A stretch of DNA of 64,000 bases, from assembly GCA_963718615.1 (NCBI GenBank), contig OY970368.1, positions 2,112,001-2,176,000 on the forward strand, written 5' to 3'. This stretch comes from an uncultured cyanobacterium (GTDB taxonomy: Bacteria; Cyanobacteriota; Cyanobacteriia; PCC-9006; JAAUQQ01). Below the pieces are notes generated by a model that made no database searches, had not been told where the DNA came from, and saw only the letters and a program-made list of their open reading frames with translations. Of this stretch, positions 1 through 23,721 are shown piece by piece (within the stretch, counting starts at the first letter, position 1; the number at the start of each line of letters is the position of its first letter). A program made the position numbers and the translations under genes.

Positions 1-290
1 AGGCAGTAGAGAATTTGCTCAACTATACGACGGAGGGGCCTTGGTTTCAGACGGGACCGGGGTTGATGACGGGTTGTGTAGGGTTGGGGTTGGTGCCTTA
101 TTTATCTCATTTGGATTTTCGAATGTGGCCTCGGTTGGTGGTCTTGAGTCAGGAGGCGTTGCGGGGGTATGTGTGGCCCCATCTGTCGTTGCCCTATAAA
201 CATACGGAGCAGAGTTGGGTTTATCAGACTTACCGTAATACAAGTAGAAAGGCAGCTAAGCATAAAAGTGTGAATGTGGCAGAGCAATGA
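1..290 (+). CDS. 3' end of a TPR-glycosyltransferase family 32 paralog (partial, begins before the window)
   Basis: nt 1-228 are near-identical to 8115-8342 (AVENLLNYTTEGPWFQTGPGLMTG...SWVYQ); the tail differs after SWVYQ. Confidence 0.85.
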   Translation, partial: AVENLLNYTTEGPWFQTGPGLMTGCVGLGLVPYLSHLDFRMWPRLVVLSQEALRGYVWPHLSLPYKHTEQSWVYQTYRNTSRKAAKHKSVNVAEQ

Positions 291-1503: not shown

Positions 1504-2688
1504 TCAGCCCGAATGGGAGCGCAGCCAGCCCTCCACCTGCGACATCTCACTGATTAGGGCCGGATCCAAAACAACCAGCGCCTCTAAAGCACAATCATTC
1601 AGCTTCATTTGCAACGGCTCTGGCAACGGTCCTAGCTGCTGATTTAACTTGCTCTGGAGACGCGCTAAGACCAATCCAATGAGCTGAGATTCGAGGTCGG
1701 CAAGGGTTTCCAGGTCAAAAACTGATAGGGTAAGGGCCTCAAGCTGGTCTGAAGAAAGAGAGGCGATCGCCCTTTCGCAGACCTCCGGTAACGAGCCAAA
1801 TTTCTGGGCAAGCAGCCGTGTGGCCAAGATTTGCTCAGCCTCTCGACGACCTTCCTCACGACCTTCCTCACGACCTTCCTCACGACCTTCCTCGCGGCCT
1901 TCCTCGCGACCTTCCTCGCGGCCTGCTTTGAGGCCACGCTCGAAGCCGATTTCTTCAACGCTGGTTACGTAGGGCATTCGTCGTTCCTCTTCGTAGGCTT
2001 TTAACTCCGTCCAAAACTGGGTTGTCAGGCTTTTGGGCAAAATCATGACCCAGTCAATAAAGCGAAACAGGTTGACAATTTCATTTCGATTATACCCCTG
2101 CTCATAAAGCCGCCGAATAAGCTGGAGCTTCCAGGCTTTGCGGCTTTGAGCGTCTTTTTTGGTCTCTTGGGCCTTGATGTGGGCCATGACGACGACGGCA
2201 AAAGGGTTACGGCTGGCTTCCATCTCGGCCCAGTGCTCTCGATAGTCCAACAGCTTGACGATGCCAAAGCGGAACGAGAGCGCTGTATCGGGGTAGTCGA
2301 AGCTGTATTGCGTGGGTCTCCATTTGCTGTTGCTGTCGCACAAAATCGCGAGGCTAGTTGCGGGGTGGCGAAAGCGATCGAAGATTCTCAAGTTGTACAA
2401 AAACATGCGCTCTTGAAACTGGGCTTCGCGGGTTGACTGGATCTCGGTGTGGATCAGCAGCCACAGTTCTTTGCCCCGTTTGCGTTGGACTTTGACTAGT
2501 TGGTCGGCGAAGCGCTTGCCTGTTTCGCTTTCGGGCGCGATTTGCTGGAATTCTTGGTCCAGAAATTCGGGGGGATGCTGCCAATCGATCAGTTTGGCGG
2601 TGTTGGGAAAAAAGAATTCGATCGCTTCTTGAAAATAGGTACGCAGCACAAACTTCCAAGGGCCATCTTGGGGATCGGACTGAACCAT
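1504..2688 (-). CDS. Rpn-like (PD-(D/E)xK) nuclease/putative transposase with DUF4351-type C-terminus
   Basis: D-x-PWK, EFLDQEFQQI, ADQLVKV, IHTEIQ, ERMFLYNLRIFDR, MPYVTSVE motifs; GREE repeats; C-terminal helical repeats. Confidence 0.8.
   Translation of the reverse strand: MVQSDPQDGPWKFVLRTYFQEAIEFFFPNTAKLIDWQHPPEFLDQEFQQIAPESETGKRFADQLVKVQRKRGKELWLLIHTEIQSTREAQFQERMFLYNLRIFDRFRHPATSLAILCDSNSKWRPTQYSFDYPDTALSFRFGIVKLLDYREHWAEMEASRNPFAVVVMAHIKAQETKKDAQSRKAWKLQLIRRLYEQGYNRNEIVNLFRFIDWVMILPKSLTTQFWTELKAYEEERRMPYVTSVEEIGFERGLKAGREEGREEGREEGREEGREEGREEGRREAEQILATRLLAQKFGSLPEVCERAIASLSSDQLEALTLSVFDLETLADLESQLIGLVLARLQSKLNQQLGPLPEPLQMKLNDCALEALVVLDPALISEMSQVEGWLRSHSG
1847..1924. repeat. 12-nt VNTR (CGRCCTTCCTCR) x6 encoding GREE; the paralog at 14514-14555 has x3
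   Basis: Read directly; accounts for the 394 vs 382 aa length difference. Confidence 0.9.
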
Positions 2689-2814
2689 TGCTCTCTGTCC
2701 CTGAGTAACAGTTCGATTGTACTTCTTTTGGGGTACTTGCCAGTCAATTGAGGCGTGGCGTTTCTAGCTGTGCGTTCGGAATTAGCTAAGGTAAGAGCTA
2801 GGAGAATGTGCTTT

Positions 2815-3052
2815 CTGCGTGGATCTGCGTAAGCTTTTTGTTTGAAGATGGAATAAAGATGCGGATGGAGTGGGGGAGTGATGGAGTAATAGGGTGATGG
2901 GGTCGTCACCCAATCACCCCGTCACCCAATCACCCAATCACCCTGATACTCAACAACCCATGACCCAGACACCTGAAACACAACCGAAGACTGCTGAGGC
3001 GCAGCTGGCGGAGGCTTTGGTGTTGCGGGAGGCTTGGGGGGATTTGGTGGGG
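2815..3052 (+). repeat. Dispersed leader repeat, copy 1 (leader plus truncated MTQTPE start at 2960)
   Basis: CTGCGTGGATCTGCGT...GAAGATGGAATAAAGAT...GTCACCCAATCACCC...CCCATGACCCAGAC shared with copies at 3926, 5010, 15446 and 16773. Confidence 0.95.
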
Positions 3053-3130
3053 CAGTTGTGGTGCGGCTGGTGCGGCTGGGAAGCATGTCGAGCATACGGG
3101 CTGTTGTTTATGCTTTGCGGTTTGCCTCAT

Positions 3131-3481
3131 TCACAGCGGAAGATAGAGAATTTGCCCTTCCATTTCACCCTGCTGAATGCATTCCAGCACGATCAGGAGA
3201 TCATCAATAATTTGTCCTGTTGAAGCATCTGTGCGAACTTCAATTACGCCAGGCATTGATAGCCCCTGGGCGATGCGATCGTAGGCATAACGGGTGATTG
3301 TTGCAACGTCATGCGTAAGTAGTACTCGATTTTCTGATGCTGCTTGGGCCAGAACGGTTGGATCATCTTTTCCGGACAGCCCGATGTCTTGAACTCTGAT
3401 AATGTCAATATCTGATTGACGGCGAAGCAAGCCTCTGAGAATCGTATTATCGAAGTTTTCGTCTGCCAGCAGTTTTAGCAT
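3131..3481 (-). CDS. DUF5615 family PIN-like protein (putative toxin)
   Basis: LLADENF, DDPTVL, RVLLTHD motifs; overlaps the DUF433 gene. Confidence 0.85.
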   Translation of the reverse strand: MLKLLADENFDNTILRGLLRRQSDIDIIRVQDIGLSGKDDPTVLAQAASENRVLLTHDVATITRYAYDRIAQGLSMPGVIEVRTDASTGQIIDDLLIVLECIQQGEMEGQILYLPL

Positions 3482-3816
3482 GCGGTTTGAAGGCTCTTGC
3501 GGGCTAGGAGTCGATCGCGGATGCCGTTTGGATCGAGCTGGGCTTCATTGTGCTGGCGAATTTGCTGGGCTTGCTTCTGTCTGGCTTGGAGATATTGCTC
3601 TATGGCTAGTTGGTTGTTTAGGTAGAAGGCAATTGTTGCGTAAACGTCTGCTAATTGGAGGGAGGTGTAGCGGTGGGTGATCTCTTCGGCGGTGAGACCT
3701 TGTTTGAAAACGTTGATGACAGTATCTAGGGTAACACGAGTTGTGCCAACAAGAATAACACCATCTGGGTTGATGATGAGTGGGGGTGGGGAAGGGGAGA
3801 GAATGATGGGTGGCAT
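3475..3816 (-). CDS. DUF433 domain protein (putative antitoxin)
   Basis: GTRVTLDTVI...GLTAEEI...Y.SL.LADVYATIAFY. Confidence 0.85.
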   Translation of the reverse strand: MPPIILSPSPPPLIINPDGVILVGTTRVTLDTVINVFKQGLTAEEITHRYTSLQLADVYATIAFYLNNQLAIEQYLQARQKQAQQIRQHNEAQLDPNGIRDRLLARKSLQTAC

Positions 3817-3925
3817 AGATAAAGAGGGGAACTGTCAGATTGTCAGGTGGATTAGTTTATTTTAGCCTGCCTCTGGCTGTGAGCAGCGAGTGGGCGGAGG
3901 TAAAGAAGTTGGGAGAATGTGATTT

Positions 3926-4177
3926 CTGCGTGGATCTGCGTAGGCCTTTTGTTTGAAGATGGAATAAAGATGCGGATGGAGGGGGGGAGTAATGGTGTGA
4001 TGGGGTCGTCACCCAATCACCCCGTCACCCAATCACCCTGATACTCAACGACCCATGACCCAGACACCTGAAATACAACCGCAGACTGCTGAGGCTCGGC
4101 TGGCGGAGGCTTTGGCGTTGCGGGAGGCTGGGGATTTGGTGGGGGCGGTGGGGCGGTTGCGAAGTGGAGAGTTCTGA
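3926..4177 (+). repeat. Dispersed leader repeat, copy 2 (with a 40-aa truncated ORF at 4055-4177)
   Basis: Same sequence as copy 1; ORF MTQTPEIQPQTAEARLAEALALREAGDLVGAVGRLRSGEF*. Confidence 0.95.
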
Positions 4178-4196
4178 TATTTCAAGTTTGACCTGG

Positions 4197-4682
4197 TCAC
4201 TCACCCACTAAGGTTAAAGCTTTAGTAAGAACATCGACGCTAATTCTGAATCCGACGCTCATTAGCTTGTCATACTCTCTACGAGCTGAAGTGATATATC
4301 CGCGCTGCTTAGCTAAAGCAATAATGCTGACGGTTCCTCTCACTTGCATTCCTAAAATGGCAGCGGCTTTGCGAGCAGCTCGATCGTCGATGATTGCTTC
4401 GAATTCGGGATGCTCGGAAACCCAAGTCATTACGCAACTTTCTCCCATGCCTAGATCCCAGCTAGCAATGATTGGGCTGATACTGGCAATGGGTTTGATA
4501 TAGAGCTGTCCTTCTGTGCGAATCCAGGTGACGGCAGAATCGTCATAGCCACCGTTTCGAATTTCATCAGCAACGCCTTGGGGAATTACCAGTTCGTTAC
4601 AAAGTTGGGTTAAGAGACTAACCTGACCAATTTTGGTGAGGGTAATAATGGGAGAGGCATTAACAACCCATTGGTTAGCCAC
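4197..4682 (-). CDS. DUF3368 domain PIN-family protein (putative toxin)
   Basis: VVNASPII, IPQGVADEI, LGMGES, IIDDRAAR, GTVSII, GFRIS; likely GTG start at 4682 overlapping the UPF0175 stop. Confidence 0.85.
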   Translation of the reverse strand: MANQWVVNASPIITLTKIGQVSLLTQLCNELVIPQGVADEIRNGGYDDSAVTWIRTEGQLYIKPIASISPIIASWDLGMGESCVMTWVSEHPEFEAIIDDRAARKAAAILGMQVRGTVSIIALAKQRGYITSARREYDKLMSVGFRISVDVLTKALTLVGE

Positions 4683-4926
4683 GGGCCAGTTCCTCAGTAA
4701 GCTCATCAGGCGTGGTTTGAAAAGGAGACACCTTAAAACGAATTAGGGCCTCTAGGAAGGCTTGACGGCTGACACCTGCGATTTCAGCAGCTTTAGATTG
4801 AGAAACGGTGCCAATTTCATACCATTTGACGGCAGCTGCCAAACGCATGTCTTGAACGAACTCGTCGGGTGTACTGCGGGTCACTGAAAAAACGCTTTCT
4901 GGCAAGCTTAGCTTGACTTCTATCAT
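4675..4926 (-). CDS. UPF0175 family protein (putative antitoxin)
   Basis: MRLAAAVKWYE.G.VSQSKAAEIAGVSRQAFLEAL HTH-like motif. Confidence 0.85.
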   Translation of the reverse strand: MIEVKLSLPESVFSVTRSTPDEFVQDMRLAAAVKWYEIGTVSQSKAAEIAGVSRQAFLEALIRFKVSPFQTTPDELTEELARG

Positions 4927-5009
4927 GATGAAATCAGCAGGTTTGGTTTGGTTAAGTATTCATATTTTAGCGAATGCTGGCCAATTTACGGTTTGGGGGT
5001 GTTAAGTGG

Positions 5010-5410
5010 CTGCGTGGATCTGCGTAAGCTTTTTGTTTGAAGATGGAATAAAGATACGGATGGAGTGGGTGAGTGATGGAGTAATGGTGTGATGGGGTCG
5101 TCACCCAATCACCCTGTCACCCAATCACCCTGATACTCAACGACCCATGACCCAGACCCCTGAAACACAACTGAAGACTGCTGAGGCGCGGCTGGCGGAG
5201 GCTTTGGCGTTGCGGGAGGCGGGGGATTTTGTGGGGGCGGTGGGGCGGTTGCGGGAGCTGCTGGAGGAGGCTGGGTTTGTGCGGGGGTGGATGGAGTTGG
5301 GGCGGACGTTGCGGCGGTTGGGGGAGCGAGAGGGGGCGTTGGAGGCGTTTGGGGAGGCTGAGCGGCTGGAGCCGGAGCATTTGCCAAGTCGGATTGAGGG
5401 GGCGATCGAA
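5010..5410 (+). repeat. Dispersed leader repeat, copy 3 (leads into the full-length gene at 5147)
   Basis: Near-identical to 16773-17176 up to GGCGATCGA. Confidence 0.95.
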
Positions 5411-8404
5411 CTGCGGGCTTTAGAGCGATTTGAGGAAGCTGAACAAAAGTTGCTGGGGGTGTTACAGATTAATTCTAAGCAGCCTGCGGCTTTGTTTCAG
5501 TTGGGGGAGGTATATCGGGTTCAGCGGAGATTTGAGGAAGCGATCGCCCAATGCCAAAAAGCTCTTAATGTTGCCCCAAATCATGTGAGTGCAAAAACTA
5601 GTCTTGCGATCGCATACCGAGAATTGGGCGAATGGGATATCGCTGAACAGCAATTGCAGCTACTTTTGCAGAACAACCTTCTGCGGCCTGCAGCTTTGGT
5701 TCAGTTGGGGGAGGTTTATCGGGTTCAGCGGAGGTTTGAGGAGGCGATCGCCCAATACCAAAAAGCTCTAGAAGCCAAGCCTGATAACCCCTGGGCAGAG
5801 ATGAACATGGCGATCGCCTATCGAGAATCAGGTCAATGGGATGTTGCTGAACAACAACTCAACAACATTCTAGATATAAATCCAAACCACTTTCAAGCCT
5901 ATATCCATCAAGGTATCTTGGCGAGATGGCGAGATGAGCATGGAAAAGCCTTAGATTGGTTTCGTAAGGCAGTAGAGTATGCAACTGATGCGGCCCAAAA
6001 ATTGCAGGCTCAACTTAAGGTTTGTGAAACATTGCAGGAGTTAGATCAGCTCGTTGAAGCTCATGAGCTGGCGCAACAGCTGGACACTGATCATGCGGGT
6101 AATTGGCGGGTAATCATGGTCTTAGGCGACCTTTTCCGTCGGCAACAGGCATTTGATTCAGCAGCTGAGTTGTATCAAAAAGTTTTATCTATTCAACCAG
6201 GGCATCGCCCTGCAAGCATTCAACTCAGTCATTGTCTGTATGACTTGGGCCAGTCAGAAGCTGCATTGCAAACACTAGAATTGGCTAAATATGGACCAGC
6301 AACTAACATAACAGTCCAGATTCGAAAAGTTGAAATTCTCCGGTTGCTACATCGGCTGGATGAAGCAGAGCAAATATTGCAATATTTGCAAGAACGCTTT
6401 CCGAAAGATTCGCGGGTGCTGATGCAGTGGGGATATCTGGAACGGCAGCGAGGGCAGCGGCAGCGGGCACTGGGTTACTTTCGACAAGCAGCAGATCATC
6501 CGTTGCAAGCTCACCAAGGATTAGCGGCTCAGTTCTGTGCCATCGAAGAATTGCGCGATCTGGATCGCTTGGACGAGGCCAAAACAGAAATTCAGCAGGT
6601 TTTGGCAAAACATCCCCAGCATCGACGGGCCAATATGATTTTGGCCAGTATCTTTTATCGACAACTGGAGCTTGGAACTGCTGCTGAGGTGTATCGCAAG
6701 CTGCTGCAATTCAATCCTCATAATACCAATGCCCAGTTTGAGCTGGCGCGGGTGTTGAGCGAGATGCAGCAGCAAACGACCGAGGCTGTTGCCCATCTGC
6801 AAGTGCAATATCACCAGTCGAAACGTCCCGAATTACGCATCCTGATGCGTTTAGGACAGTTGGCAGAGGCCCAGGAGGATTATCCAGAGGCGCAGCGGTG
6901 GTATGAGCAGGCGCGGGAACTTTATCCCCACAGAGCACAGGTGTATAGCGCACTGGCGGAGGTGATGTATCGGCAGGCGGAGATTGAGGGGGCGATCGCG
7001 CTCCTCTCCGACGCAAGACAAGAGATACCTCAAGCTCCAGAGCTTCCGCTCAAGTTAGCTAGTTTACAGATGCGGCTAGGTTATCCAGTAAAAAGTCTAC
7101 GGATTCTTGAGGAGGTGTATCAGCGGTTTCCGCATCAGATATCGGTTTTGTTGCAGCTTTGTCATCTGCATTTGCAACTAGGAGAGTTTGAGAACGCCGA
7201 GGGACTTTTAGCCGGAACTGGATTTGATCACGGCAATTGGCGGAAGCAGGTGGCGTTGTTGCGGGCGGAGATGGCGTTGCGGCGGTTTCAGCCCCAGATG
7301 GCAGAACCCTATTTGCGGGAGGCGATCGCTATTGCCCCAGCAACACCTCATGAGCATAACCGTCTAGCTCAAACCTATCTACTCCAGGCAGAGCCGCTGA
7401 AGGCTTATGAGCAGGTCAAGTTAGCGACGGACTTATTGAAGCTAAAAATGGCTCCAGGACAGACTAACATTCCGCTGAAAGACCATGTGGCGGTGCTAAT
7501 TAATCAGATGCGGATGAATCCGGCCATGTTGGAGCAACTGCAAGCCGCAATGCAAGAGCAAGGTAAGGAGCGGTTGATTGGGTTGGGAACGATCGTCGCT
7601 CAGGAGCCGACCTATTTGGGGGCGGGGTTGTGTTTAATGCAGGCGTTGCGGCAGCAGGATATTTTTGCGGAATGGCGGCGGTTGTTGCCAGTGGGGGCAG
7701 TGGGTTTGCCGCAGATCCCGAAGCGAATTGTGCAGTTTTGGGATAGCCCGAAGCCACCGGAGGAGATTGCGGGAGTGATGCGGAGTTGGGTGGAGATGAA
7801 TCCGGACTATGAGTATGTAAGGTTTTCGTTGCAGCGGGCGATCGCTTTCCTCCAGGAGTATTACGACGCGGATGTGTTGAAGGCGTTTCAGCTCTGTGGT
7901 CATGTAGCAACCCAGGCGGATTTGTTTCGGTTGGCCTATCTGAACAAGATGGGTGGTTTTTATGCGGATGCGGATGATCGCTGTCTGGTATCACTAGATG
8001 ATCTGGTGGAATCGAATGCAGAGCTTGTTGTCTATCAGGAAGAGTATGCATCGATCGGCAACAACTTTTTAGGCTGTATTCCCAACCAATCGATGATTCA
8101 GATGGCGTTGTATCAGGCGGTGGAGAATTTGCTCAACTATACGACGGAGGGGCCTTGGTTTCAGACGGGGCCGGGGTTGATGACGGGTTGTGTAGGGTTG
8201 GGGTTAGTGCCCTATTTATCGCATTTAGATTTTCGGATGTGGCCTCGATTGGTGGTGTTGAGTCAGGAGGCATTGCGGGGATATGTGTGGCCTCATCTGT
8301 CGTTGCCCTATAAGCATACGGAGAAGAGTTGGGTGTATCAGAGTTATCGGGCTCCGAATCGGCAGAATAAGCGATCGCTAGAAGCTTGTAGCACCGAACG
8401 GTAA
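5147..8404 (+). CDS. TPR-repeat protein with C-terminal glycosyltransferase family 32 (DXD) domain
   Basis: Many TPR units; IPKRIVQFWD, NPDYEY, QADLFRLAYLNKMGGFYADADD, TGPG. Confidence 0.9.
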   Translation: MTQTPETQLKTAEARLAEALALREAGDFVGAVGRLRELLEEAGFVRGWMELGRTLRRLGEREGALEAFGEAERLEPEHLPSRIEGAIELRALERFEEAEQKLLGVLQINSKQPAALFQLGEVYRVQRRFEEAIAQCQKALNVAPNHVSAKTSLAIAYRELGEWDIAEQQLQLLLQNNLLRPAALVQLGEVYRVQRRFEEAIAQYQKALEAKPDNPWAEMNMAIAYRESGQWDVAEQQLNNILDINPNHFQAYIHQGILARWRDEHGKALDWFRKAVEYATDAAQKLQAQLKVCETLQELDQLVEAHELAQQLDTDHAGNWRVIMVLGDLFRRQQAFDSAAELYQKVLSIQPGHRPASIQLSHCLYDLGQSEAALQTLELAKYGPATNITVQIRKVEILRLLHRLDEAEQILQYLQERFPKDSRVLMQWGYLERQRGQRQRALGYFRQAADHPLQAHQGLAAQFCAIEELRDLDRLDEAKTEIQQVLAKHPQHRRANMILASIFYRQLELGTAAEVYRKLLQFNPHNTNAQFELARVLSEMQQQTTEAVAHLQVQYHQSKRPELRILMRLGQLAEAQEDYPEAQRWYEQARELYPHRAQVYSALAEVMYRQAEIEGAIALLSDARQEIPQAPELPLKLASLQMRLGYPVKSLRILEEVYQRFPHQISVLLQLCHLHLQLGEFENAEGLLAGTGFDHGNWRKQVALLRAEMALRRFQPQMAEPYLREAIAIAPATPHEHNRLAQTYLLQAEPLKAYEQVKLATDLLKLKMAPGQTNIPLKDHVAVLINQMRMNPAMLEQLQAAMQEQGKERLIGLGTIVAQEPTYLGAGLCLMQALRQQDIFAEWRRLLPVGAVGLPQIPKRIVQFWDSPKPPEEIAGVMRSWVEMNPDYEYVRFSLQRAIAFLQEYYDADVLKAFQLCGHVATQADLFRLAYLNKMGGFYADADDRCLVSLDDLVESNAELVVYQEEYASIGNNFLGCIPNQSMIQMALYQAVENLLNYTTEGPWFQTGPGLMTGCVGLGLVPYLSHLDFRMWPRLVVLSQEALRGYVWPHLSLPYKHTEKSWVYQSYRAPNRQNKRSLEACSTER

Positions 8405-8458
8405 GAATATGACACCAGCACAATACCAGGCAGATCAGAGGGATTTTTAGAGGTCAGT

Positions 8459-10990
8459 ATGAGAGTCAGTGTGATTATTCCTGCTTATAACTGCGGTTTG
8501 TATTTGTCTGAGGCGATCGCTAGCGTTTTATCTCAAACCTATAAAAACTACGAGATTATTGTTGTTAATGATGGGTCAACCGATGACACAGCAAAGATCT
8601 TAGCCAGTTATCAAGATCAAATCCAAGCAAAATCCATTGCATTTCAGGTTATTTCTCAGTCAAATCAAGGCGTTGCCGCAGCTCGTAACCGTGGATTGCA
8701 AGCGGCAACGGGAGAGTTGATTGCCTTCTTAGATGCAGATGATTGCTTTTGGCCGGAGAAGCTGACTCGGCAAGTGGCTTGTTTTGAAGCATTGCCGGGT
8801 CTAGGAATTGTGATTTCCGGTTGGCAGTTAGTTGATCAAAGCGGTCAAGAAATCTCTAATGTTGAACCTTGGCAAGCGGCTCCAAGGCTGAATCTAGAAG
8901 CTGCTATTTTTCAGAAACCGGCTCGGCCTAGTGCAACGATGGTGCGGCGAGATTGGTGCGAGCGGATTGGCGGCTTTGATGGCAGGCTGAGAAGTGCGGA
9001 GGATTTGGATTTTTTATTGCGCCTATTGGCGGCGGGTTGTGAGGCGGATTGGTTGCCGGCGGTTTTGGCGAGCTATCGTCAGCGATCAGATAGTTTGATG
9101 GCCCAGGGAAAGGGGTTGATCGATGATACAGAGCAGGTGATGGAGGGCTTTTTTTCCCGAGCAGATTTACCATCTGAAATCTTGACGCTGAAGCAATGGG
9201 AGCGTTATCAGTCTTGGGTTTGGCTAGGGGCGCGGATGTATTATGACGGTCACATCGGTGAGATGGAAACTTGTTTGAGGCGATCGCGTCGCTACACCAC
9301 AAATTCCAGTTTCCAAATCCTCCAGGATTGGTTTCAAGCCATGCGAGGCTATGCGATGGAATATGGCTATGGGTTTGATGCCTATGCTTTGACGAGTTCG
9401 GAGGTTTGGCAGAAGCTGACGCGATCGCTTCTCCCTGCTAGCAATAAGCCATTACCTAGAAAGCAAAAACCATGGTCGAGCGGTGACGAGAATCAATCTC
9501 AGCACATTGTTCTCTATAGCGACGATCCGGGGGCGGGGGGGATTTTGCAATGCAATCATGCGATCGCCTGTCATCTTGCCCAGGCTGGATATCAGGTGAG
9601 CCATATTCATTCTCTACAAGACACGCCGCTCAATGCCAAAGAACTGGAGTTAGGCATTAAACAAGTTGATTTGGGCTACCATGCGGGTGCGGATCTGACC
9701 CGAACCATGAAGGATCTAGAGGGTAGCAAACAGCATCTGTTGGAGATTCAACCGGATCTCGTCATTTTTAGTGATGGCTGGCCCTTCTCGAATTTTGCTG
9801 CCAAGCAAGCGGCGATTGATCTGGAAATTCCCTATCTGATTGTTCTAGGATTTATTGAACCGTCCTGTGGCAGCTATGACTATCAAGATGGGGTAGATTA
9901 TCGCAATTTGGTGGCATTACATTATACCCAGGCTCGTGCAGTGGTGTCGGTGTCTGAGGAAAATCTCTTGCTGCTGAGACAACTCTTTGAGCTACCGGAG
10001 TCTGTGGGGCAGGTGATTTATAATGGTCGGCCTGAGGTCTTTTTTGCGGAACCCGATCCCCAAGGACGGGAGGCGTTGCGGCGGTCTTTGGACATTCCGT
10101 CCGAGGCGATAGTTTGTTTTACATCGGCTCGGCTGGAGGCGGTTAAGGGGTATAAGTATCAGATCGAGGCCATCCGTCAATTGAAGACGAAGCCGATCTG
10201 GAAAAATTTGTATTTTCTTTGGGCTGGCATAGGACAAGAGGTTTTGCCCCAGAGTAATGAGCTAGAGTTGCGGGCTGCGGTGGAGTCGCTGGGGGTGGGG
10301 AATCAGGTTCAGTTTTTGGGGCAGCGGTGGGATATTCCGGAGCTACTGGATGCAAGTGATATTTTCGTATTGACTTCGGAGGCGGAGGGGATGCCCCTGT
10401 CGGTGATGGAGGCAATGGCAAAGGGCTTGCCAGTGGTGGCTTCGGCGGTGAGTGGGGTGCCGGAGGAACTAGGTGATACGGGGCAGCTTTTGCCGGATCC
10501 GAATCGGCAGCCGGAGGAGACGGTCAAGGTGCTGGTGCAGACGATTGAGCGGTGGGCCAATTCGGCTTCGTTACGGCAGGTTCTGGGGCAGGAGTGTCAA
10601 CAGCGGGCTCGGCAATTATTTCGCGAAACTGAGATGGTCAAGCGTTATGGTGAGGTGGTATCCAGTTGTCTAGAGAACCTTGGGACATGCAATGAGTCTC
10701 TAGCCCCTCTAGAGCGATTAAGCCTTCAGCAAATAAAGGAAATTCAGCGGCAGTTTCGCTATACGGCCTGGGTCTGGCGGGGATGGTTTTGCTATCAGCA
10801 AGGGGATGGAGAAGGAATGGAAGCGGCATTGGAGGAGGCGTTGCGGTGGCGTGGCTGGGGACAGGGTTGGCCAGGGTTGGCGTGGGGGCGATGGTTTGCG
10901 CGGTTTTGTGAGGAGAGGGAGGTGGCATTTGAGGGGGTAGGGTTGGCGCGATCGCTTCACAGGGTTTCGTCGGCATTGTTAGCAAGGTAG
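8459..10990 (+). CDS. Bifunctional glycosyltransferase (GT2 N-terminal, GT4 C-terminal)
   Basis: VSVIIPAYN, VNDGSTD, AFLDADD; DIFVLTSEAEGMPLSVMEAMAKGLPVVAS. Confidence 0.9.
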   Translation: MRVSVIIPAYNCGLYLSEAIASVLSQTYKNYEIIVVNDGSTDDTAKILASYQDQIQAKSIAFQVISQSNQGVAAARNRGLQAATGELIAFLDADDCFWPEKLTRQVACFEALPGLGIVISGWQLVDQSGQEISNVEPWQAAPRLNLEAAIFQKPARPSATMVRRDWCERIGGFDGRLRSAEDLDFLLRLLAAGCEADWLPAVLASYRQRSDSLMAQGKGLIDDTEQVMEGFFSRADLPSEILTLKQWERYQSWVWLGARMYYDGHIGEMETCLRRSRRYTTNSSFQILQDWFQAMRGYAMEYGYGFDAYALTSSEVWQKLTRSLLPASNKPLPRKQKPWSSGDENQSQHIVLYSDDPGAGGILQCNHAIACHLAQAGYQVSHIHSLQDTPLNAKELELGIKQVDLGYHAGADLTRTMKDLEGSKQHLLEIQPDLVIFSDGWPFSNFAAKQAAIDLEIPYLIVLGFIEPSCGSYDYQDGVDYRNLVALHYTQARAVVSVSEENLLLLRQLFELPESVGQVIYNGRPEVFFAEPDPQGREALRRSLDIPSEAIVCFTSARLEAVKGYKYQIEAIRQLKTKPIWKNLYFLWAGIGQEVLPQSNELELRAAVESLGVGNQVQFLGQRWDIPELLDASDIFVLTSEAEGMPLSVMEAMAKGLPVVASAVSGVPEELGDTGQLLPDPNRQPEETVKVLVQTIERWANSASLRQVLGQECQQRARQLFRETEMVKRYGEVVSSCLENLGTCNESLAPLERLSLQQIKEIQRQFRYTAWVWRGWFCYQQGDGEGMEAALEEALRWRGWGQGWPGLAWGRWFARFCEEREVAFEGVGLARSLHRVSSALLAR

Positions 10991-11009
10991 TCGGTGCTAG
11001 GATCTATGC

Positions 11010-12170
11010 ATGTTTGACACGGTTTGCAAATTTCTGATTGAAACTTTTCCGACGGATTTTGCGAGTTGGCTGCTGGGTGAACCGGTAGAGCTGACTGAGC
11101 TGAGTCCGTCTGAGCTTTCGCTGGAGCCGATTCGGGCGGATGCGTTGCTGCTGATGCAATCGGCGGAGACGATTTTGCATGTCGAGTTTCAGTCTCGACC
11201 GGATGCAGCGATTCCATTCCGGATGGCGGACTATCGTCTACGAGTGTATCGTCGGTTTCCAAGCAAGGCCATGCGGCAGGTGGTGATTTATCTCAAGCAG
11301 ACAGAGTCGGAATGGGTGTATGAAACGGTGTTTGAGATCCCGAGGACTCGTCATGAATTTGATGTCATTCGTCTCTGGGAGCAGCCGGTAGAGCAGTTTC
11401 TCTCGGAGCCGGGGCTGCTGCCGTTTGCGGCTTTGGCCAAGACCGATGACCGTGAGGCGGTTTTGCGGGAGGTGGCAAGGCGGATTGAGCAGATTTCTGA
11501 CCGTCGGATTGAAAGTCATGTGGCGGCCTGTACGGGGGTTTTGGCTGGGCTATCATTGGATGAGGCGTTGGTTCAGCGAATTTTGAGGATGGAGATCATG
11601 CAGGATTCGTCAGTTTATCAAGCAATTAAAGCGGAAGGCCGACGGGAAGCCCAAAGAGAGGCGCAGGAGCGCGAGGCGTTGCTTCAGCGGGAGGCCCAGG
11701 AGCGCGAGGTATTGCTTCAGCGGGAGGCTCAGGAGCGCGAGGTATTGCTTCGGAGGGAGGCTCAGGAGCGCGAGGCTCAGCTATTGCTCCGGTTGCTGAA
11801 TCGGCGGGTTGGATCGTTGCCGGAGGCGTTGCAGCGGCAGGTAATGGGGTTGTCGGTGGGGCAGTTGGAGGATTTGGGTGAGGCGTTGTTGGATTTTTCG
11901 GGGGTCGCGGATTTGGAGGGGTGGTTGCTAGGGTTACGGCAACGAATTGAGGAGGTTTTGGATCAGTTGAATAGGCAAGTGGGTGTGGTTTTGCGGGTGG
12001 TGGAACCGGAGTTGGCGGGGCGGGTGATGGGGTTGTCTTGGATGCAGTTGGATGAGTTGGAGGGTGTCGCTGCTGAGAATCCAGGCGAGCAGATGGGCTT
12101 TAAGACCGTGGCTGATGTGAAGAGTTGGTTGGAGCGGATGGAGGGCGATCGCGCCTTGGGATTAGCCTAA
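11010..12170 (+). CDS. Rpn family nuclease/putative transposase with DUF4351 C-terminus
   Basis: MFDTVCKFL, EPIRAD, LHVEFQ, PFRMADY, MQDSSVYQ, QLEDLGEALLDFS. Confidence 0.85.
   Translation: MFDTVCKFLIETFPTDFASWLLGEPVELTELSPSELSLEPIRADALLLMQSAETILHVEFQSRPDAAIPFRMADYRLRVYRRFPSKAMRQVVIYLKQTESEWVYETVFEIPRTRHEFDVIRLWEQPVEQFLSEPGLLPFAALAKTDDREAVLREVARRIEQISDRRIESHVAACTGVLAGLSLDEALVQRILRMEIMQDSSVYQAIKAEGRREAQREAQEREALLQREAQEREVLLQREAQEREVLLRREAQEREAQLLLRLLNRRVGSLPEALQRQVMGLSVGQLEDLGEALLDFSGVADLEGWLLGLRQRIEEVLDQLNRQVGVVLRVVEPELAGRVMGLSWMQLDELEGVAAENPGEQMGFKTVADVKSWLERMEGDRALGLA
11658..11775 (+). repeat. 33-nt tandem repeat x~3.5 encoding EAQEREVLLQR
   Basis: Read directly. Confidence 0.85.
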
Positions 12171-12183
12171 ATACGTAATATTT

Positions 12184-12600
12184 ATGCCAGCAAAAGATAT
12201 CTACCATTACGCCGTAAAATGCGCTCTAATCAAGGATGGCTGGAGCATTTTGTCTGAAGATTATGTACTCGCCTATGGAGGTGATCGAGTCTATGCCGAC
12301 ATTGCCGCAGAGAAGGCGATCGCGGCAGAAAGACAAAATCAGCAAATCATTGTTGAAGTGAAGAGCTTTATTGGTCGTTCTTTTGTGCATGAACTCGAAG
12401 GGGCTGTAGGTCAGTATGTTGTTTATCGAGACATTCTCGAAGAAACAAGTTCTGCATTTGAACTTTATTTAGCCGTAACGAAAGGAGTTTGGAATAGCGT
12501 TTTTCAGAGAAAGCTACCACAAATGCTGATTCGTCGTAATCGAGTCAAGCTGATTATTGTTGATTCAGATAGCGAGGTAATTGATCAATGGATAACTTAG
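12184..12600 (+). CDS. xisH: XisH family protein
   Basis: MPAKDIYH.AVK.ALIKDGW, D.AAEK.IAAE, VEVKSF, AVGQY..YR. Confidence 0.9.
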   Translation: MPAKDIYHYAVKCALIKDGWSILSEDYVLAYGGDRVYADIAAEKAIAAERQNQQIIVEVKSFIGRSFVHELEGAVGQYVVYRDILEETSSAFELYLAVTKGVWNSVFQRKLPQMLIRRNRVKLIIVDSDSEVIDQWIT

Positions 12601-12929
12601 AGCGATACCGAGAAGTCATTAAGATGATTATCGGTGAATATCATCGGTTAAATTTGAGTTTACCTGATTCTGCGGTTGAGAGTGTTTGTGTTTTTGATGA
12701 GATTCATGATCATTATCTATTGATTTTGATGGGTTGGGAGGGAAGTGAGCGGGTGAAGAGTGTCATGATTCATGTGCGGTTGCACAATGGTAAGTTTTGG
12801 ATTGAGGAGGATTGGACGGAGGATGGGATTGCGACGGATTTGTTGCGGGCTGGGGTGAGCGCTGAGAAGATTGTGTTGGCGTTTCATCCACCGCAGCTAA
12901 GGCAGTATACGGAGTTTGCGATCGCTTAA
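12588..12929 (+). CDS. xisI: XisI family protein
   Basis: MD.LE.YR, D..HDHYL, GK.WIEEDWTEDGIATDL..AGV....IVLAFHPP..R.YTEFAIA. Confidence 0.9.
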   Translation: MDNLERYREVIKMIIGEYHRLNLSLPDSAVESVCVFDEIHDHYLLILMGWEGSERVKSVMIHVRLHNGKFWIEEDWTEDGIATDLLRAGVSAEKIVLAFHPPQLRQYTEFAIA

Positions 12930-13019
12930 GCAATTGAAGAAAAGCAGGGCGGAGGCGGCAGTCCTACTCAAACGCTAAAATGGAAAAATATTGTTGGGTG
13001 ATTGGCTCGGAGAATTGCT

Positions 13020-13799
13020 ATGGTTCAGCTTCCGTCCCGCAGGTTTGCGACAGAACCCAGTCTTGAGAAGGCTCCGAGTACAGAGCCTGGAGCTGAGCGG
13101 TCTGATTCTAGGCTGGTGCAGCAGGAACCGGAGTGGGATATTCTGGGGGAGGAGTGGCTGAGTGATGAACCGGAGTTGGAGTCTGATTTTCACCGGGAAC
13201 AGATTACGTTGTTGTTGCGGTTGATGCAGTGGTATTGGCGCGACCGCAATGATATTTATTGCTCTGGCAACACAACGGTTTATTACGATGAATCGCAGCG
13301 AACAAACCGGAACTTTAAGGGGCCGGATGTGTTTGTTGTGTTGGGGGTAGACCCGAGATTACGCAGCAGTTGGATGACCTGGCGTGAGGGGGGTCGATAT
13401 CCGAATGTGGTGATTGAGCTGTTGTCGGATTCGACAGCGAAGGTGGATCGCACGGAGAAGAAGGCACTGTATCAGAATGTGTGGCGATTGCCTGAGTATT
13501 TCTGGTTTCACCCGCGTACGCTAGAGTTTAAGGGGTTTAGGTTGGTGGATGGGCGGTATCAAGAACTTCAGTTGGATGAGCGGGGATGTTTGTGGAGCCA
13601 GGAGTTGGGTTTGTTGTTGGGGCTGGATGGGGAAAGGCTACGGTTGTTTACGGGGGAGGGGGAGTTAATCGAATTAGAGGAGGAGGAGGAGCGGCGGCAA
13701 AAGGAGGAGGAGCGGCAGCGGGCGGAGCGGGCGGAGGAGCGGGCGGAGCGGCTGGAGCGGCGGTTGCGGGAGTTGGGAATTAATTTAGAGGATGGGTGA
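13020..13799 (+). CDS. Uma2 family endonuclease (paralog of 407-1132)
   Basis: Same motifs; ATG at 13020 matches the paralog start MVQLPS; TAAAAT at 12976-12981. Confidence 0.9.
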   Translation: MVQLPSRRFATEPSLEKAPSTEPGAERSDSRLVQQEPEWDILGEEWLSDEPELESDFHREQITLLLRLMQWYWRDRNDIYCSGNTTVYYDESQRTNRNFKGPDVFVVLGVDPRLRSSWMTWREGGRYPNVVIELLSDSTAKVDRTEKKALYQNVWRLPEYFWFHPRTLEFKGFRLVDGRYQELQLDERGCLWSQELGLLLGLDGERLRLFTGEGELIELEEEEERRQKEEERQRAERAEERAERLERRLRELGINLEDG

Positions 13800-15685
13800 G
13801 AATTTATGCTTCGGCAACTGTTGAGGGAAACTACTGGATTTTTGCGGCAATCCAGCTGAGGAGAAGAAGTGTGGAGATAATTAACGTGAGGATAATCGCA
13901 AGAAACTTAAGTCCTGTGGTTCAGAGGGCGATGATTCCGGCGGTGTAGAGGAGGAAGCAGAGGGCGATGGTTAGGTTTTTGCTGGTTTTTGTTTGAATGT
14001 TTGGCTGTAGTCTCGGTCTGTCATAAATTGAGCCAGTTTTTTTCTTTCGGCGGATCTTGGAGGATCTTGATTTTGCAATGCCATTTGGTAGGAGGCGATC
14101 GCCAGTGAGACCAAGCAAGCTCTGGATTGAGGCAGATCATGGGGTTAAGTGCGATCGTTGGCAGGTCTTATCAGCCCGAATGGGAGCGCAGCCAGCCCTC
14201 CACCTGCGACATCTCACTGATTAGGGCCGGATCCAAAACAACCAGCGCCTCTAAAGCACAATCATTCAGCTTCATTTGCAACGGCTCTGGCAACGGTCCT
14301 AGCTGCTGATTTAACTTGCTCTGGAGACGCGCTAAGACCAATCCAATGAGCTGAGATTCGAGGTCGGCAAGGGTTTCCAGGTCAAAAATTGATAGGGTAA
14401 GGGCCTCAAGCTGGTCTGAAGAAAGAGAGGCGATCGCCCTTTCGCAGACCTCCGGTAACGAGCCAAATTTCTGAGTAAGTAGCCGTGTGGCCAAGATTTG
14501 CTCAGCCTCTCGACGACCTTCCTCACGACCTTCCTCGCGGCCTTCCTCGCGGCCTGCTTTTAGGCCACGCTCGAAGCCGATTTCTTCAACGCTGGTTACG
14601 TAGGGCATTCGTCGTTCCTCTTCGTAGGCTTTTAACTCTGTCCAAAACTGGGTTGTCAGACTTTTGGGTAAAATCATTACCCAATCAATAAAGCGAAACA
14701 GGTTGATAATTTCATTTCGATTATACCCCTGCTCATAGAGTCGCCGGATAAGTTGGAGTTTCCAGGCTTTACGGCTTTGAGCGTCTTTTTTGGTCTCTTG
14801 GGCCTTGAGATGGGCCATGACGACGACGGCAAAGGGATTCCGGCTGGCTTCCAGCTCGGCCCAGTGCTCTCGATAGTCCAACAGCTTGACGATGCCAAAG
14901 CGGAACGAGAGCGCTGTATCGGGGTAGTCGAAGCTGTATTGTGTGGGTCTCCATTTGCTGTTGCTGTCGCACAAAATCGCGAGGCTAGTTGCGGGGTGGC
15001 GAAAGCGATCGAAGATTCTCAAGTTGTACAAAAACATGCGCTCTTGAAACTGGGCTTCGCGGGTTGACTGGATCTCGGTGTGGATCAGCAGCCACAGTTC
15101 TTTGCCCCGTTTGCGTTGGACTTTGACCAGTTGGTCGGCGAAGCGCTTGCCTGTTTCGCTTTCGGGCGCGATTTGCTGGAATTCTTGGTCCAGAAATTCG
15201 GGGGGATGTTGCCAATCGATCAGTTTGGCGGTGTTGGGAAAAAAGAATTCGATCGCTTCTTGAAAATAGGTACGCAGCACAAACTTCCAAGGGCCATCTT
15301 GGGGATCGGACTGAACCATTGCTCTCTGTCCCTGAGTAACAGTTCGATTGTACTTCTTTTGGGGTACTCGCCAGTCTATTGAGGCGTGGCGTTTCTAGCT
15401 GTGCGTTCGGAATTAGCTAAGATAAAAGCTAGGAGAATGTGCTTTCTGCGTGGATCTGCGTAGGCTTTTTGTTTGAAGATGGAATAAAGATACGGATGGA
15501 GGGGGTGAGTGATGGAGTAATGGTGTGATGGGGTCGTCACCCAATCACCCAATCACCCTGATACTCAACGACCCATGACCCAGACCCCTGAAAGACAACT
15601 GAAGACTGCTGAGGCGCGGCTGGCGGAGGCTTTGGCGTTGCGGGAGGCTGGGGATTTGGTGGGGGCGGTGGGGCGGTTGCGGGGG
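13127..15685. repeat. Segmental duplication of ~481-3050 (Uma2 - remnant - Rpn - leader repeat)
   Basis: Colinear high identity with scattered SNPs and small indels. Confidence 0.95.
14171..15319 (-). CDS. Rpn-like nuclease/putative transposase (paralog of 1504-2688)
   Basis: Near-identical protein with three fewer GREE units. Confidence 0.8.
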   Translation of the reverse strand: MVQSDPQDGPWKFVLRTYFQEAIEFFFPNTAKLIDWQHPPEFLDQEFQQIAPESETGKRFADQLVKVQRKRGKELWLLIHTEIQSTREAQFQERMFLYNLRIFDRFRHPATSLAILCDSNSKWRPTQYSFDYPDTALSFRFGIVKLLDYREHWAELEASRNPFAVVVMAHLKAQETKKDAQSRKAWKLQLIRRLYEQGYNRNEIINLFRFIDWVMILPKSLTTQFWTELKAYEEERRMPYVTSVEEIGFERGLKAGREEGREEGREEGRREAEQILATRLLTQKFGSLPEVCERAIASLSSDQLEALTLSIFDLETLADLESQLIGLVLARLQSKLNQQLGPLPEPLQMKLNDCALEALVVLDPALISEMSQVEGWLRSHSG

Positions 15686-15793
15686 ATCCTGGCTGAGGAG
15701 GCTGGGTTTGTGCGGGGGTGGATGGAGTTGGGGAGGGGGAGGTTGCGACGGTTGGGGGGAGTGGGAATTGCTCCAGATAAGAAGTTTATTTAA
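15446..15793 (+). repeat. Dispersed leader repeat, copy 4 (with a 72-aa truncated TPR-gene fragment at 15575-15793)
   Basis: MTQTPERQLKTAEARLAEALALREAGDLVGAVGRLR...GFVRGWMELGR, then divergence and stop. Confidence 0.95.
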
Positions 15794-16158
15794 GCAGAGA
15801 GTACTTGATTTTCAGATACGGACTGAGACATTTGAAGTACTTTTTTAAGCCAATTCCCGATTTGGGTGATGAATTCCTGATTGCGAGAATTGTCGGTCAA
15901 GCAATGATTAAGAGTCAGTTGCCAGCGGGCGAGTTGAACCTGCAATTCAACTAACTCAGCCGTAGTTTCAACGTCAAACTCACAGGCAGTCCACTCAATC
16001 AGGTATTTACTTTCATAGAGGATGTTATCTATAAGAATGGAAGCTGCCGCTTCTTTGGCGAGAGTTCGAAGTCGGGCAAGATTCATGGCGAGATAGCCCA
16101 GTCGTTGCTCTGGGGGTTGAGCTAAATAGCAGGCTTTTATTTCTGACAAATCTCTCAT
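15790..16158 (-). CDS. Hypothetical helical protein coupled to the DUF5674 gene
   Basis: 122-aa ORF with a 4-nt start/stop overlap with the DUF5674 gene; RLGYLA.NLAR, ES.Y.IEWTA, ELVELQ.QLARWQ. Confidence 0.75.
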   Translation of the reverse strand: MRDLSEIKACYLAQPPEQRLGYLAMNLARLRTLAKEAAASILIDNILYESKYLIEWTACEFDVETTAELVELQVQLARWQLTLNHCLTDNSRNQEFITQIGNWLKKVLQMSQSVSENQVLSA

Positions 16159-16490
16159 TGTTCTCCTAGTTTATCTTCTAAGATTTTCTTGACTTTTTCG
16201 CGAATGATTGGATCAGAGATTTGCATTTCGCGATTGTTTTGACGGGGTTTAATATTAATCAGCGATTCGTAAGCGACTTCTTGCTTAAATGGGATCCAGT
16301 CTGCTCCCCAAATGTCCTTTTGCGAGCTGCCATCTTCAAGGAGCATGGCCTCACAGTCCGCATGGAGTTGTCCACCACCTGCTAAAATTCTTCTCTCGGT
16401 ATCTACAGCGGTTTTGATATATACACCAAGGGCTTCCAGCATCTCTACTTGCTGCTCTGGTGTTGCGTGATCTCGGATGATGTGGATCAA
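16155..16490 (-). CDS. DUF5674 family protein
   Basis: IK.AVD.ER.ILAGGG.LHADCE..LLEDGS.Q.DIWGADW...ESLINI.PRQNN. Confidence 0.8.
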   Translation of the reverse strand: MIHIIRDHATPEQQVEMLEALGVYIKTAVDTERRILAGGGQLHADCEAMLLEDGSSQKDIWGADWIPFKQEVAYESLINIKPRQNNREMQISDPIIREKVKKILEDKLGEQ

Positions 16491-16772
16491 AGCTTGGATT
16501 AGCTGATTTTAACCGATCTTAGCAGCTTCTTTGAAGGTGTGCGAGTGGTGATGTGTAAGAAATGGTTTGGGTCATGAAGTAATGATTGTGAGCTGAGTGT
16601 GGATGGGGCTTGAGATTGGGGGTCGGTTTGGCCGAAGGAGGTCTACTGAATTTTGCTGGTGTGGTAGTTGAGGAGAAGGGTGCTAATGATGAGGATGGCG
16701 AGAAGCTGGAGTTCTGGGGGCCAGAGGGTGATGATTCTGGTGGTGTAGAGAGCGCTGGGGGGTGTTGGGTGG

Positions 16773-17176
16773 CTGCGTGGATCTGCGTAAGCTTTTTGTT
16801 TGAAGATGGAATAAAGATACGGATGGAGTGGGTGAGTGATGGAGTAATGGTGTGATGGGGTCGTCACCCAATCACCCTGTCACCCAATCACCCTGATACT
16901 CAACGACCCATGACCCAGACCCCTGAAAGACAACTGAAGACTGCTGAGGCGCGGCTGGCGGCGGCTTTGGCGTTGCGGGAGGCTGGGGATTTGGTAGGGG
17001 CGGTGGGGCTGTTGCGGGAGCTGCTGGGGGAGGAGAGTGGGTTTGTGCGGGGGTGGATAGAGTTGGGGCGAACGTTGCGGCGGTTGGGGGAGCGAGAGGC
17101 GGCGTTGGAGGCGTTTGGGGAGGCTGAGCGGTTGGAGCCGAAGCATTTGCAGAGTCGGATTGAGGGGGCGATCGAG
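16773..17176 (+). repeat. Dispersed leader repeat, copy 5 (leads into the full-length gene at 16910)
   Basis: Near-identical to 5010-5410. Confidence 0.95.
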
Positions 17177-19936: not shown

Positions 19937-19982
19937 TGCCTCTTGATTTGGCAAGCCAAATTAAATTTAGAACAGAAATCAA

Positions 19983-23661: not shown

Positions 23662-23721
23662 TGTAATTCTCCTGTTTTTAATGCGTCTAGCTTGATGGCG
23701 AGATGGTAAAACGAATAAAAC

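Follow-up and report, generated by a model that had tools for sequence, protein, structure and literature searches.

Toxin-antitoxin-like cassettes stacked in the 5' ends of cyanobacterial glycosyltransferase genes: candidate insertions with long target duplication

How chromosomal toxin-antitoxin modules move is an unsettled question, and it is raised in compact form by one locus of an uncultured cyanobacterium. In its complete genome of 6,095,823 bp (GC content 0.523; assembly GCA_963718615.1, contig OY970368.1) we analysed a window of 64,000 nucleotides (nt), positions 2,112,001 to 2,176,000 (G000:C1:2112001-2176000); window coordinates are used below, and negative values denote positions upstream of the window. 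At this locus the leader and the first codons of a glycosyltransferase (GT) gene of the TPR-GT32 type recur several times, in some places heading a gene and in others as a short stub, and a minus-strand pair of small genes lies between each stub and the next copy. How did such an array arise? We assign a probability of roughly 0.6 to the reading that it results from repeated, integrase-free insertions of predicted two-gene addiction or defence cassettes into the GT leader and the first 30-60 codons, the heads of the genes having subsequently recombined.

The question reaches beyond this locus. A 2026 Photorhabdus study reported toxin-antitoxin islets devoid of mobile-element genes and invoked mobile-element erosion together with recombination at flanking core genes; in the available part of that paper direct repeats are not mentioned (PMC13617665). 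The single complete genome described here carries more than 20 compact cassettes of the toxin-antitoxin or nuclease type, each lying between two copies of a piece of its target gene, as well as at least two stacked arrays.

The leader repeat and the cassettes beside it

A preliminary description of this DNA, based on the letters alone, had placed five copies of one element in the window, the third and fifth running into full TPR-GT32 genes and the first, second and fourth being truncated. Repeat searching and a five-way alignment located the core starts at the proposed positions (2815, 3926, 5010, 15446 and 16773), and BLASTN of window 4995-5440 against the whole genome returned seven matches (E 1e-91 to 0), two of which precede the window (-10430 and -4647). 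All seven are on the plus strand within one 27-kb locus (genome 2101570-2129175), and no copy was found outside it in the 6,095,823-bp genome. The shared element extends from CTGCGTGGATCTGCGT through an octamer palindrome to ATGACCCAGAC and onward into coding sequence; each copy constitutes the leader and 5' end of a GT paralog and runs on into the same coding sequence. Four of the seven head TPR-GT32 genes (A, B, C and D) and three are stubs (c1, c2 and c4). Copies 3 and 5 continue, as described, into intact genes C (5147-8404; 1085 amino acids, aa) and D (16910-19936; 1008 aa), both encoding TPR repeats and Gly_transf_sug with a GT32-type DXD region (Pfam), and homology of the stubs to the full copies stops at the counterparts of copy C positions 5236, 5253 and 5324, i.e. 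at codons 30, 36 and 60 (c1, c2 and c4, respectively).

The repeat might itself be the mobile or regulatory unit, such as a miniature inverted-repeat transposable element (MITE) or a conserved leader RNA, copied independently of the cassettes. An imperfect octamer-repeat palindrome and a constant left edge (CTGCGTGG...) would be in keeping with this, but all seven copies share one locus, one orientation and one coding sequence, no Rfam match was obtained within window 1-22000 at E <= 1, and the fold of 5010-5170 had no extra stability over shuffled sequences (z = -0.76). In a strict genome-wide search the palindrome was present only in six of the seven leader copies. Leader DNA across 41 genomes matched its own genome and otherwise gave only fragments of up to 71 nt, and exact leader patterns had 0 matches in public genome contigs and metagenome contigs; with no copy in the 41 relatives or in these two public collections, an independently copied element is extremely improbable. 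A MITE or other dispersed repeat was rejected on zero copies outside the locus and, in the 40 other genomes, only fragments of at most 71 nt; the genome-wide scatter named beforehand as a refutation did not materialise.

Each stub is followed by an insert of 848-1014 nt with two small genes (cassettes TA1, TA2 and Y; Table 1), enclosed by direct repeats of 262, 244 and 313 nt, respectively, with 86-92% identity. The proposal that cargo is stacked at the GT 5' end, with a truncated copy upstream and the intact gene downstream, was borne out. Pfam detected only DUF433/DUF5615, UPF0175/DUF3368 and DUF5674 in the inserts (E 3e-10 to 5e-23 for the TA1 and TA2 families) and no transposase, integrase or other mobility gene, the IS1 and IS3 insertion sequences (IS) being located elsewhere in the locus. 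The two genes of each pair overlap by 7 nt (DUF433/DUF5615), 32 nt (UPF0175/DUF3368) or 4 nt (DUF5674 pair), and the TA1 and TA2 cargo is single-copy in the genome (BLASTN). By family and gene architecture, TA1 and TA2 are predicted type II toxin-antitoxin pairs, and TA2 corresponds to the PADLOC candidate system PDC-S70 (E 3.5e-56 and 9.4e-10). The 122-aa partner in cassette Y belongs to no Pfam family; atlas look-alikes of this cassette fall into unnamed cyanobacterial and Chloroflexota clusters, with no known function for the DUF5674 pair. All cassettes face away from the GT gene and have their own upstream regions. Two of the -10-like hexamers assigned earlier to the modules, TAAAAT at 3859-3864 and 4964-4969, read on the minus strand, and a third, TACAAT at 2716-2721, was picked up by a promoter/terminator consensus scan of 2600-5300, which yielded four promoter and four terminator sites where 2.8 and 2.7 would be expected.

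A minus-strand module had been proposed immediately to the left of each leader copy. Pfam supports this for all of them; not all are cassettes, however. The two DUF4351 (Rpn-like) genes are instead part of a duplicated block Uma2 - DUF4351 - leader (481-3069 matches 13127-15679 at 91.7%), and no stub is found on their far side. The gene at 1504-2688 scored 19.1 bits against the NCBIfam Rpn model TIGR01784, below its cut-off of 52.1. Three of the 15 DUF4351 matches of the genome are in this locus, and a role for Rpn-like nucleases in cassette insertion is possible. The minus-strand DUF4351 genes also contain tandem 12-nt repeats (1822-1947 and 14489-14578), whose copy number differs between the genes.

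The claim that the array lacks an integrase withstood a search of the whole genome: no tyrosine recombinase was detected by Pfam among the 35 open reading frames (ORFs) of the locus and its flanks, the tyrosine recombinase family PF00589 has five matches at four places in the genome, the nearest (1791553-1792041) at a distance of approx. 310 kb, and serine recombinases are absent from the genome. The likeness to an integron was not sustained, since no attC-like shared boundary is present and the three joints occupy different positions in unrelated sequence. Each stub/cargo joint is situated 31-82 nt from the stop codon of the next minus-strand gene, and no motif is common to the cargo ends or to the three joints, whose flanking sequences are unrelated and whose target positions differ. 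On the far side of the cargo, the next leader core is reached after 28 nt (c2) or 0-15 nt (C and D). The stubs carry indels, and their ORFs of 87, 40 and 72 aa (c1, c2 and c4) extend into the cassettes. Three variants (5056G, 5158A and 5172C) are carried by c1 and c2 alone; together with the pairwise distances they fit either order of TA1 and TA2 insertion, both orders yielding the observed structure.

The same stubs might be relics of deletions, in which tandem cassette - leader - GT units lost three GT bodies and the addictive cassettes were spared. The locus is indeed a tandem array of Uma2 - DUF4351 - leader - GT units with IS1 and IS3 elements, and the absence of a target duplication at one IS1 is a sign of an adjacent deletion. 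However, three deletions would all have had to end 31-82 nt from a cassette stop codon without leaving any trace of a GT 3' end, Uma2 or DUF4351. Moreover, the order stub - cargo - gene is also found at single-copy genes (chlH, ureC, hsdM and a GDSL lipase gene; see below) that are never tandem and are single-copy in relatives. We consider deletion relics highly unlikely.

Exchange among the GT heads

The leader and approx. 90 codons are 93-97% identical among A, B, C and D. Whole-protein identity amounts to 51.7% (A/C), 43.3% (A/D), 37.7% (C/D) and 87.6% (B/C), and the GC content at third codon positions is 0.68-0.78 in the heads (C 0.78, D 0.77) and 0.37, 0.53 and 0.30 in the bodies of A, C and D, respectively. 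The head is thus a shared module placed on bodies that differ in composition, and a shared head on unlike bodies requires recombination at the head. A low-GC tract (34-41%) extends from the end of the D head to position ~27000; this tract of ~10 kb includes BNR_4, beta-helix/methyltransferase and GT1/methyltransferase genes. The GT genes themselves are mosaics (window 16773-27162; L001 7570-10751), with the head grafted at about codon 75-90, a pattern suggesting that surface-glycan genes exchange their bodies at the head.

The preliminary description had also suggested that cargo travels with the leader, and cassette Y, present at two paralogs, bears this out. The 1,401-nt segment 15781-17181 (cassette Y, leader and 90 codons of D) is 98.7% identical to -5624..-4224, and for the cargo alone 992 of 1014 nt align at 99.7% to the second copy, which begins at -5624. 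The identity between B and D ends where their bodies, only ~40% identical, begin. At D the cassette is preceded by stub c4 and at B by an IS1 without target duplication. At the level of the sequence, this shows directly that cargo, leader and 5' end recombined as one unit into another paralog. As a nearly identical Y and head stand before unlike bodies, homologous recombination at the shared head would move cassettes between paralogs. A conserved leader and 5' head can therefore be regarded as a potential recombination handle, which collects defence cassettes and carries compositionally foreign GT bodies.

As shown in Table 1, the locus is a four-unit array, each unit being composed of Uma2 (+), DUF4351/Rpn-like (-), leader and TPR-GT32 gene (+). 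Core genes (phosphoketolase and acetate kinase), a WYL regulator and an IS3-family element mark its left end. Unit A consists of a DUF4351 5' fragment followed by the leader and gene A (1014 aa), and unit B of Uma2, an IS1 copy, cassette Y, the leader and gene B, which is split by a second IS1. Unit C comprises Uma2, DUF4351, c1, TA1, c2, TA2, the leader and gene C; unit D, Uma2, DUF4351, c4, cassette Y, the leader and gene D. Between the C and D units there are a GT2-GT4 fusion gene, a plus-strand Rpn-family gene (with 33-nt repeats at 11658-11808) and XisH/XisI. The segment -2414..235 matches 5700-8349 at 91.9%. Since the IS1 that splits gene B (-3466..-2561; L001 14534-15439) is bordered by a TAAAAAA target duplication, B is counted as one gene and not as a stub. 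A different IS1-family element (-6483..-5625; L001 11517-12375) has no target duplication and abuts cassette Y exactly, which suggests that an adjacent deletion took away the DUF4351 gene and the stub that preceded this cassette at B.

Table 1. Features of the GT array in window coordinates
Feature	Position	Strand	Remarks
3' end of GT paralog B (TPR-GT32)	1-290	+	1-235 matches 8115-8349 at 92%
Uma2-family gene, putative restriction endonuclease fold	407-1132	+	PF05685, E 1.8e-24; weak PADLOC PDC-S03 match
DUF4351 (Rpn-like), native upstream neighbour of leader	1504-2688	-	PF14261, E 2.7e-13
Stub c1	2787-3048	+	Leader (core 2815, ATG 2960) and ~30 codons, indels
Cassette TA1	3049-3897	-	DUF5615 (PIN-like, 3131-3481) and DUF433 (3475-3816), Pfam; own upstream region
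Stub c2	3898-4161	+	Leader (core 3926, ATG 4055) and 36 codons; 28 nt of DUF4351-side upstream sequence
Cassette TA2	4162-4994	-	DUF3368 (4197-4706) and UPF0175 (4675-4926), Pfam
Leader and intact TPR-GT32 gene C	4995-8404	+	Core 5010-5146, gene 5147-8404; shared head ends at ~5409-5415
Second Uma2 of duplicated block	13002-13799	+	Pfam
Second DUF4351 (Rpn-like) of duplicated block	14171-15319	-	Pfam
Stub c4	15446-15758	+	Leader (ATG 15575) and ~60 codons, 72-aa ORF
Cassette Y	15759-16772	-	122-aa conserved hypothetical (15790-16158) and DUF5674 (16155-16490), Pfam
Leader and intact TPR-GT32 gene D	16773-19936	+	Gene 16910-19936; low-GC body

The same footprint elsewhere in the genome and in relatives

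The GT 5' end had been regarded as a special stacking site, but the same footprint was found at dozens of unrelated genes of this genome. A plus-strand self-comparison (repeats of 60-480 nt, at least 80% identity, spacing of 400-6000 nt, the repeat being present only as that pair) yielded 34 merged intervals between locus-unique direct repeats, which cover 55.5 kb or 0.91% of the genome; the GT locus, whose repeat has seven copies, falls outside this set. Sixteen of the 21 intervals examined carry toxin-antitoxin or nuclease-type families (Pfam), namely ParE, Fic/Doc, PIN (five intervals), HepT with MNT (two), BrnA/CopG, AbiEii with HNH, XisH with XisI, Uma2 (two), DUF5615, Tox-PL-2 and HSDR_N. 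One further interval encodes an Arr-like ADP-ribosyltransferase, and four were uninformative (a sub-threshold GNAT match, DUF4926, a weak DUF2555 match and no hit). Independently of the choice of intervals, six of the 25 PIN matches of the genome lie inside the 34 intervals (binomial P = 8.7e-8).

The duplicated pieces are ordinary gene ends, e.g. 157 nt at the end of chlH/cobN, 78 nt at the start of ureC, the 3' end of hsdM and the first 87 nt at a GDSL lipase gene, where the repeat ends exactly at the ATG. The cargo was single-copy in 15 of the 16 non-GT cassettes (BLASTN), the exception containing an IS copy, and the identity of the repeats ranged from 100% down to ~80%. A second stacked array is formed by three copies of the leader and 5' end of another small gene (genome 5338245, 5340193 and 5344303). 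In this array (5338245-5344516) the repeats comprise the leader and 13-40 codons; AbiEii-like, HNH and unknown genes are located between copies 1 and 2, and another HNH gene with unknowns between copies 2 and 3. At hsdM (2488342-2489807), a type I methylase gene, a HepT/MNT pair is inserted at the 3' end together with a duplication of 130 nt; here a defence system is itself the target of another.

Comparison with relatives of the same family provided empty sites for several of these cases. At chlH/cobN, all four relatives' loci contain a single repeat copy followed by the native spacer and terminator, and ParDE is absent. Alignment to these relatives indicates a duplication that was originally ~234 nt long. 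The stub copy has lost the native 41-nt spacer that separates the stop codon from the terminator; in its place stands a 107-nt palindromic element (genome 1280520-1280626), which is built of GGTGATGG-type repeats and resembles in style the octamer palindrome found in the GT leader. Both repeats at ureC align to one single-copy place in all four relatives' loci, where the Tox-PL-2 cargo is absent, and the GDSL lipase repeat occurs once in four relatives' loci. The two chlH copies are identical to each other at 156 of 157 positions, against 141-142 of 157 to the nearest relative; they share substitutions of their own, which places the origin of the duplicated piece in this lineage itself. At chlH and ureC, the distance to relatives is the same for stub and gene to within 0-3 nt, a precision that the GDSL alignments, being of unequal length, do not allow. 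Across 11 repeats, the 82 differences between stub and gene were distributed over codon positions as 14:26:42, which departs from uniformity (P = 7e-4; P = 0.07 against a neutral-stub model).

For the GT array itself, several observations weigh against the reading given at the outset. First, there is no empty site: the head was absent from all genomes, metagenome contigs and proteins searched. Its protein was found in eight genomes of the order in its own genome alone, apart from one 32% TPR match, and 0 were confirmed in metagenome contigs; among the matches listed from a set of 5.8 billion proteins (596-1899 aa), only its own proteins exceeded 41% identity to the head. No metagenome contig bridged an empty cassette site at this locus. 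Second, contigs of metagenome runs X1-X3 contain TA1 cargo at ~95% identity, and such ~95%-identical contigs have the same filled TA1 site with the same joint: the c1/TA1 joint (copy-3 position 5236 joined to 3049) was seen in X4 record 24 and also in X1 record 2, and TA1 runs into the leader in X2 record 13 and X3 record 18. Because a ~95% relative, belonging to a stromatolite population, has an identical joint, the TA1 insertion is old and shared, and nothing shows present-day mobility of the array. The ongoing turnover envisaged earlier is not supported here; the finding leans instead towards the fixed cargo that had been named as a refutation, for that cassette only. Third, the 15 nt upstream of copy C are not a simple target duplication. 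Thirteen of them match the cassette-Y side at B and D, and an extra step is needed, which we read as a gene-conversion tract from paralog B (93.7% identity to C over 4995-5560). It is also worth mentioning that, in contigs of runs X1-X3, one copy of the GT start is preceded, upstream of its ATG, by sequence with no relation to the leader (loose end 2959; 2959-3020).

These data bear as well on a dynamic, integron-like site, in which circles of stub and cargo would excise between leaders and re-enter any leader by a single crossover of the Campbell type, with turnover among strains. The order truncated copy - cargo - full copy is what single-crossover integration would produce, and cassette Y, leader and head occur at two paralogs with 98.7% identity. 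In the relative G003, pieces of the BrnA cassette are ordered cargo end - repeat - cargo start (L066 3190-3518), as in a circle or a tandem copy. They adjoin the gene that flanks the stub in the genome studied here, and the middle of the cargo was not found in this metagenome-assembled genome (MAG). However, G003 is an 88%-complete MAG and the arrangement lies at a contig end, so it may be an assembly effect. Furthermore, a circle needs a pre-existing repeat, which leaves the first duplication at unique genes such as chlH and ureC unexplained, the TA1 joints are unchanged in the ~95% relative, and no contig bridges an empty site. Excision and re-entry of circles therefore appears improbable as the source of the array.

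Origin of the duplications and comparison with known systems

Read from the sequence, the insertion model comprises three entries into a GT head, each with a stub and a restored gene, and head-to-head recombination. Compact cassettes of 0.85-1.0 kb would have entered the GT head three times, and each insertion would have left 244-313 nt of the target twice, the promoter-side copy becoming a dead stub and the copy beyond the cassette heading the intact gene. Presumably, the gene is kept, and the insertion hence survives, only if the duplication reaches across a gene start or stop (here, the leader and start codon). Stubs would then decay and might serve as harmless landing places, and addiction to the cassette would protect it against loss by recombination between the flanking repeats. 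Finally, homologous recombination among the four heads would carry cassette and head between paralogs and homogenise the heads.

As regards the origin of the duplicated piece, homologous pairing on the gene side combined with an illegitimate joint within the end of the resident gene has about an even chance of being correct, and cassette Y fits this route. A staggered duplication formed de novo would fit the repeats of the genome's own sequence with 100% and 99.4% identity, but is the less probable of the two, and integration of a circle is unlikely to account for the duplications.

A wider generalisation may be put forward only tentatively, and we hold it to be rather doubtful: toxin-antitoxin and nuclease cassettes would be integrase-free mobile units that copy 80-300 nt of a target end, and the resulting stub - cassette - head units would then be mobilised by the host among genes sharing a head, in the manner of an integron that lacks an integrase, and the GT leader with its palindrome would be a preferred entry point. 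If true, the movement of chromosomal toxin-antitoxin islets that lack mobile-element genes could be tested in a single strain bearing more than 20 footprints of graded age.

Like integron arrays, the array collects small promoter-proximal units, often toxin-antitoxin pairs, one after another at a single site. It differs from them in having no IntI and no attC or attI, since its boundaries are pieces of the target gene that differ from event to event, and in cassettes that face away from the gene and possess their own upstream regions.

In rhs and cdiA loci, displaced orphan toxin-immunity modules keep a piece of the main gene's conserved part, and homologous recombination within this part brings in or swaps modules. 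The GT array is similar in that a displaced module retains a conserved fragment of the main gene and recombination in the conserved part brings in modules. There, however, the conserved part lies upstream and the displaced 3' ends encode the cargo, whereas here the head at the 5' end is the conserved part, the displaced 5' stubs are empty and a separate operon on the opposite strand forms the cargo.

Homology-facilitated illegitimate recombination was reportedly described in naturally transformable bacteria by de Vries and Wackernagel in 2002 and by Prudhomme et al. in 2002. One homologous anchor and one illegitimate joint would likewise place a restored gene end beside the cargo and displace the resident end, and this fits cassette Y travelling with the leader and head. 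In the present case, competence of the organism, a donor and microhomology at the joints would all have to be assumed.

The closest parallel is insertion with long target duplication, for which the founding paper is said to be that of Nobusato et al. (2000). The footprint of the GT array appears to match it, with toxin-antitoxin cargo and a target shared by paralogs. In the available part of their paper, Furuta, Abe and Kobayashi (2010) describe such insertions for restriction-modification systems, with repeats that often span a translation start or stop and leave the target intact, mainly in naturally competent species and in one case from Microcystis (PMC2853133). The mechanism was given there as unknown, and a virus-like cycle of insertion, amplification via the repeats and release was proposed (PMC2853133). 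Judging from that part, the two phenomena have much in common: a small selfish unit without transposase or integrase, long locus-unique direct repeats of variable length (30 to >400 bp there vs 63-313 nt in this genome) that often span starts or stops, related genomes with a single-copy empty site, and a cyanobacterial case. The GT array likewise has repeats longer than 30 bp, a local target sequence and inserts below 20 kb that contain no mobility gene. At other loci of this genome, relatives with the repeat present once were found in four of four loci for both chlH/ParE and ureC/Tox-PL-2.

The differences lie in the cargo and in the target. Toxin-antitoxin-like and nuclease-type pairs take the place of restriction-modification genes, and since the cargo at the GT array is toxin-antitoxin-like, this array represents a variant and not an insertion with long target duplication in the original sense. 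Several events are stacked in one target here, dozens of cases occur in one genome, and the target is common to four paralogs, among which homologous recombination would move the cassettes. The term 'toxin-antitoxin' has 0 occurrences in the available text of PMC2853133, and no description of long target duplications around toxin-antitoxin cargo was found in the literature searched. A footprint noted 25 years ago, whose mechanism is unexplained, may thus be extended from restriction-modification to toxin-antitoxin genes, and this genome offers a tractable place in which to approach that mechanism.

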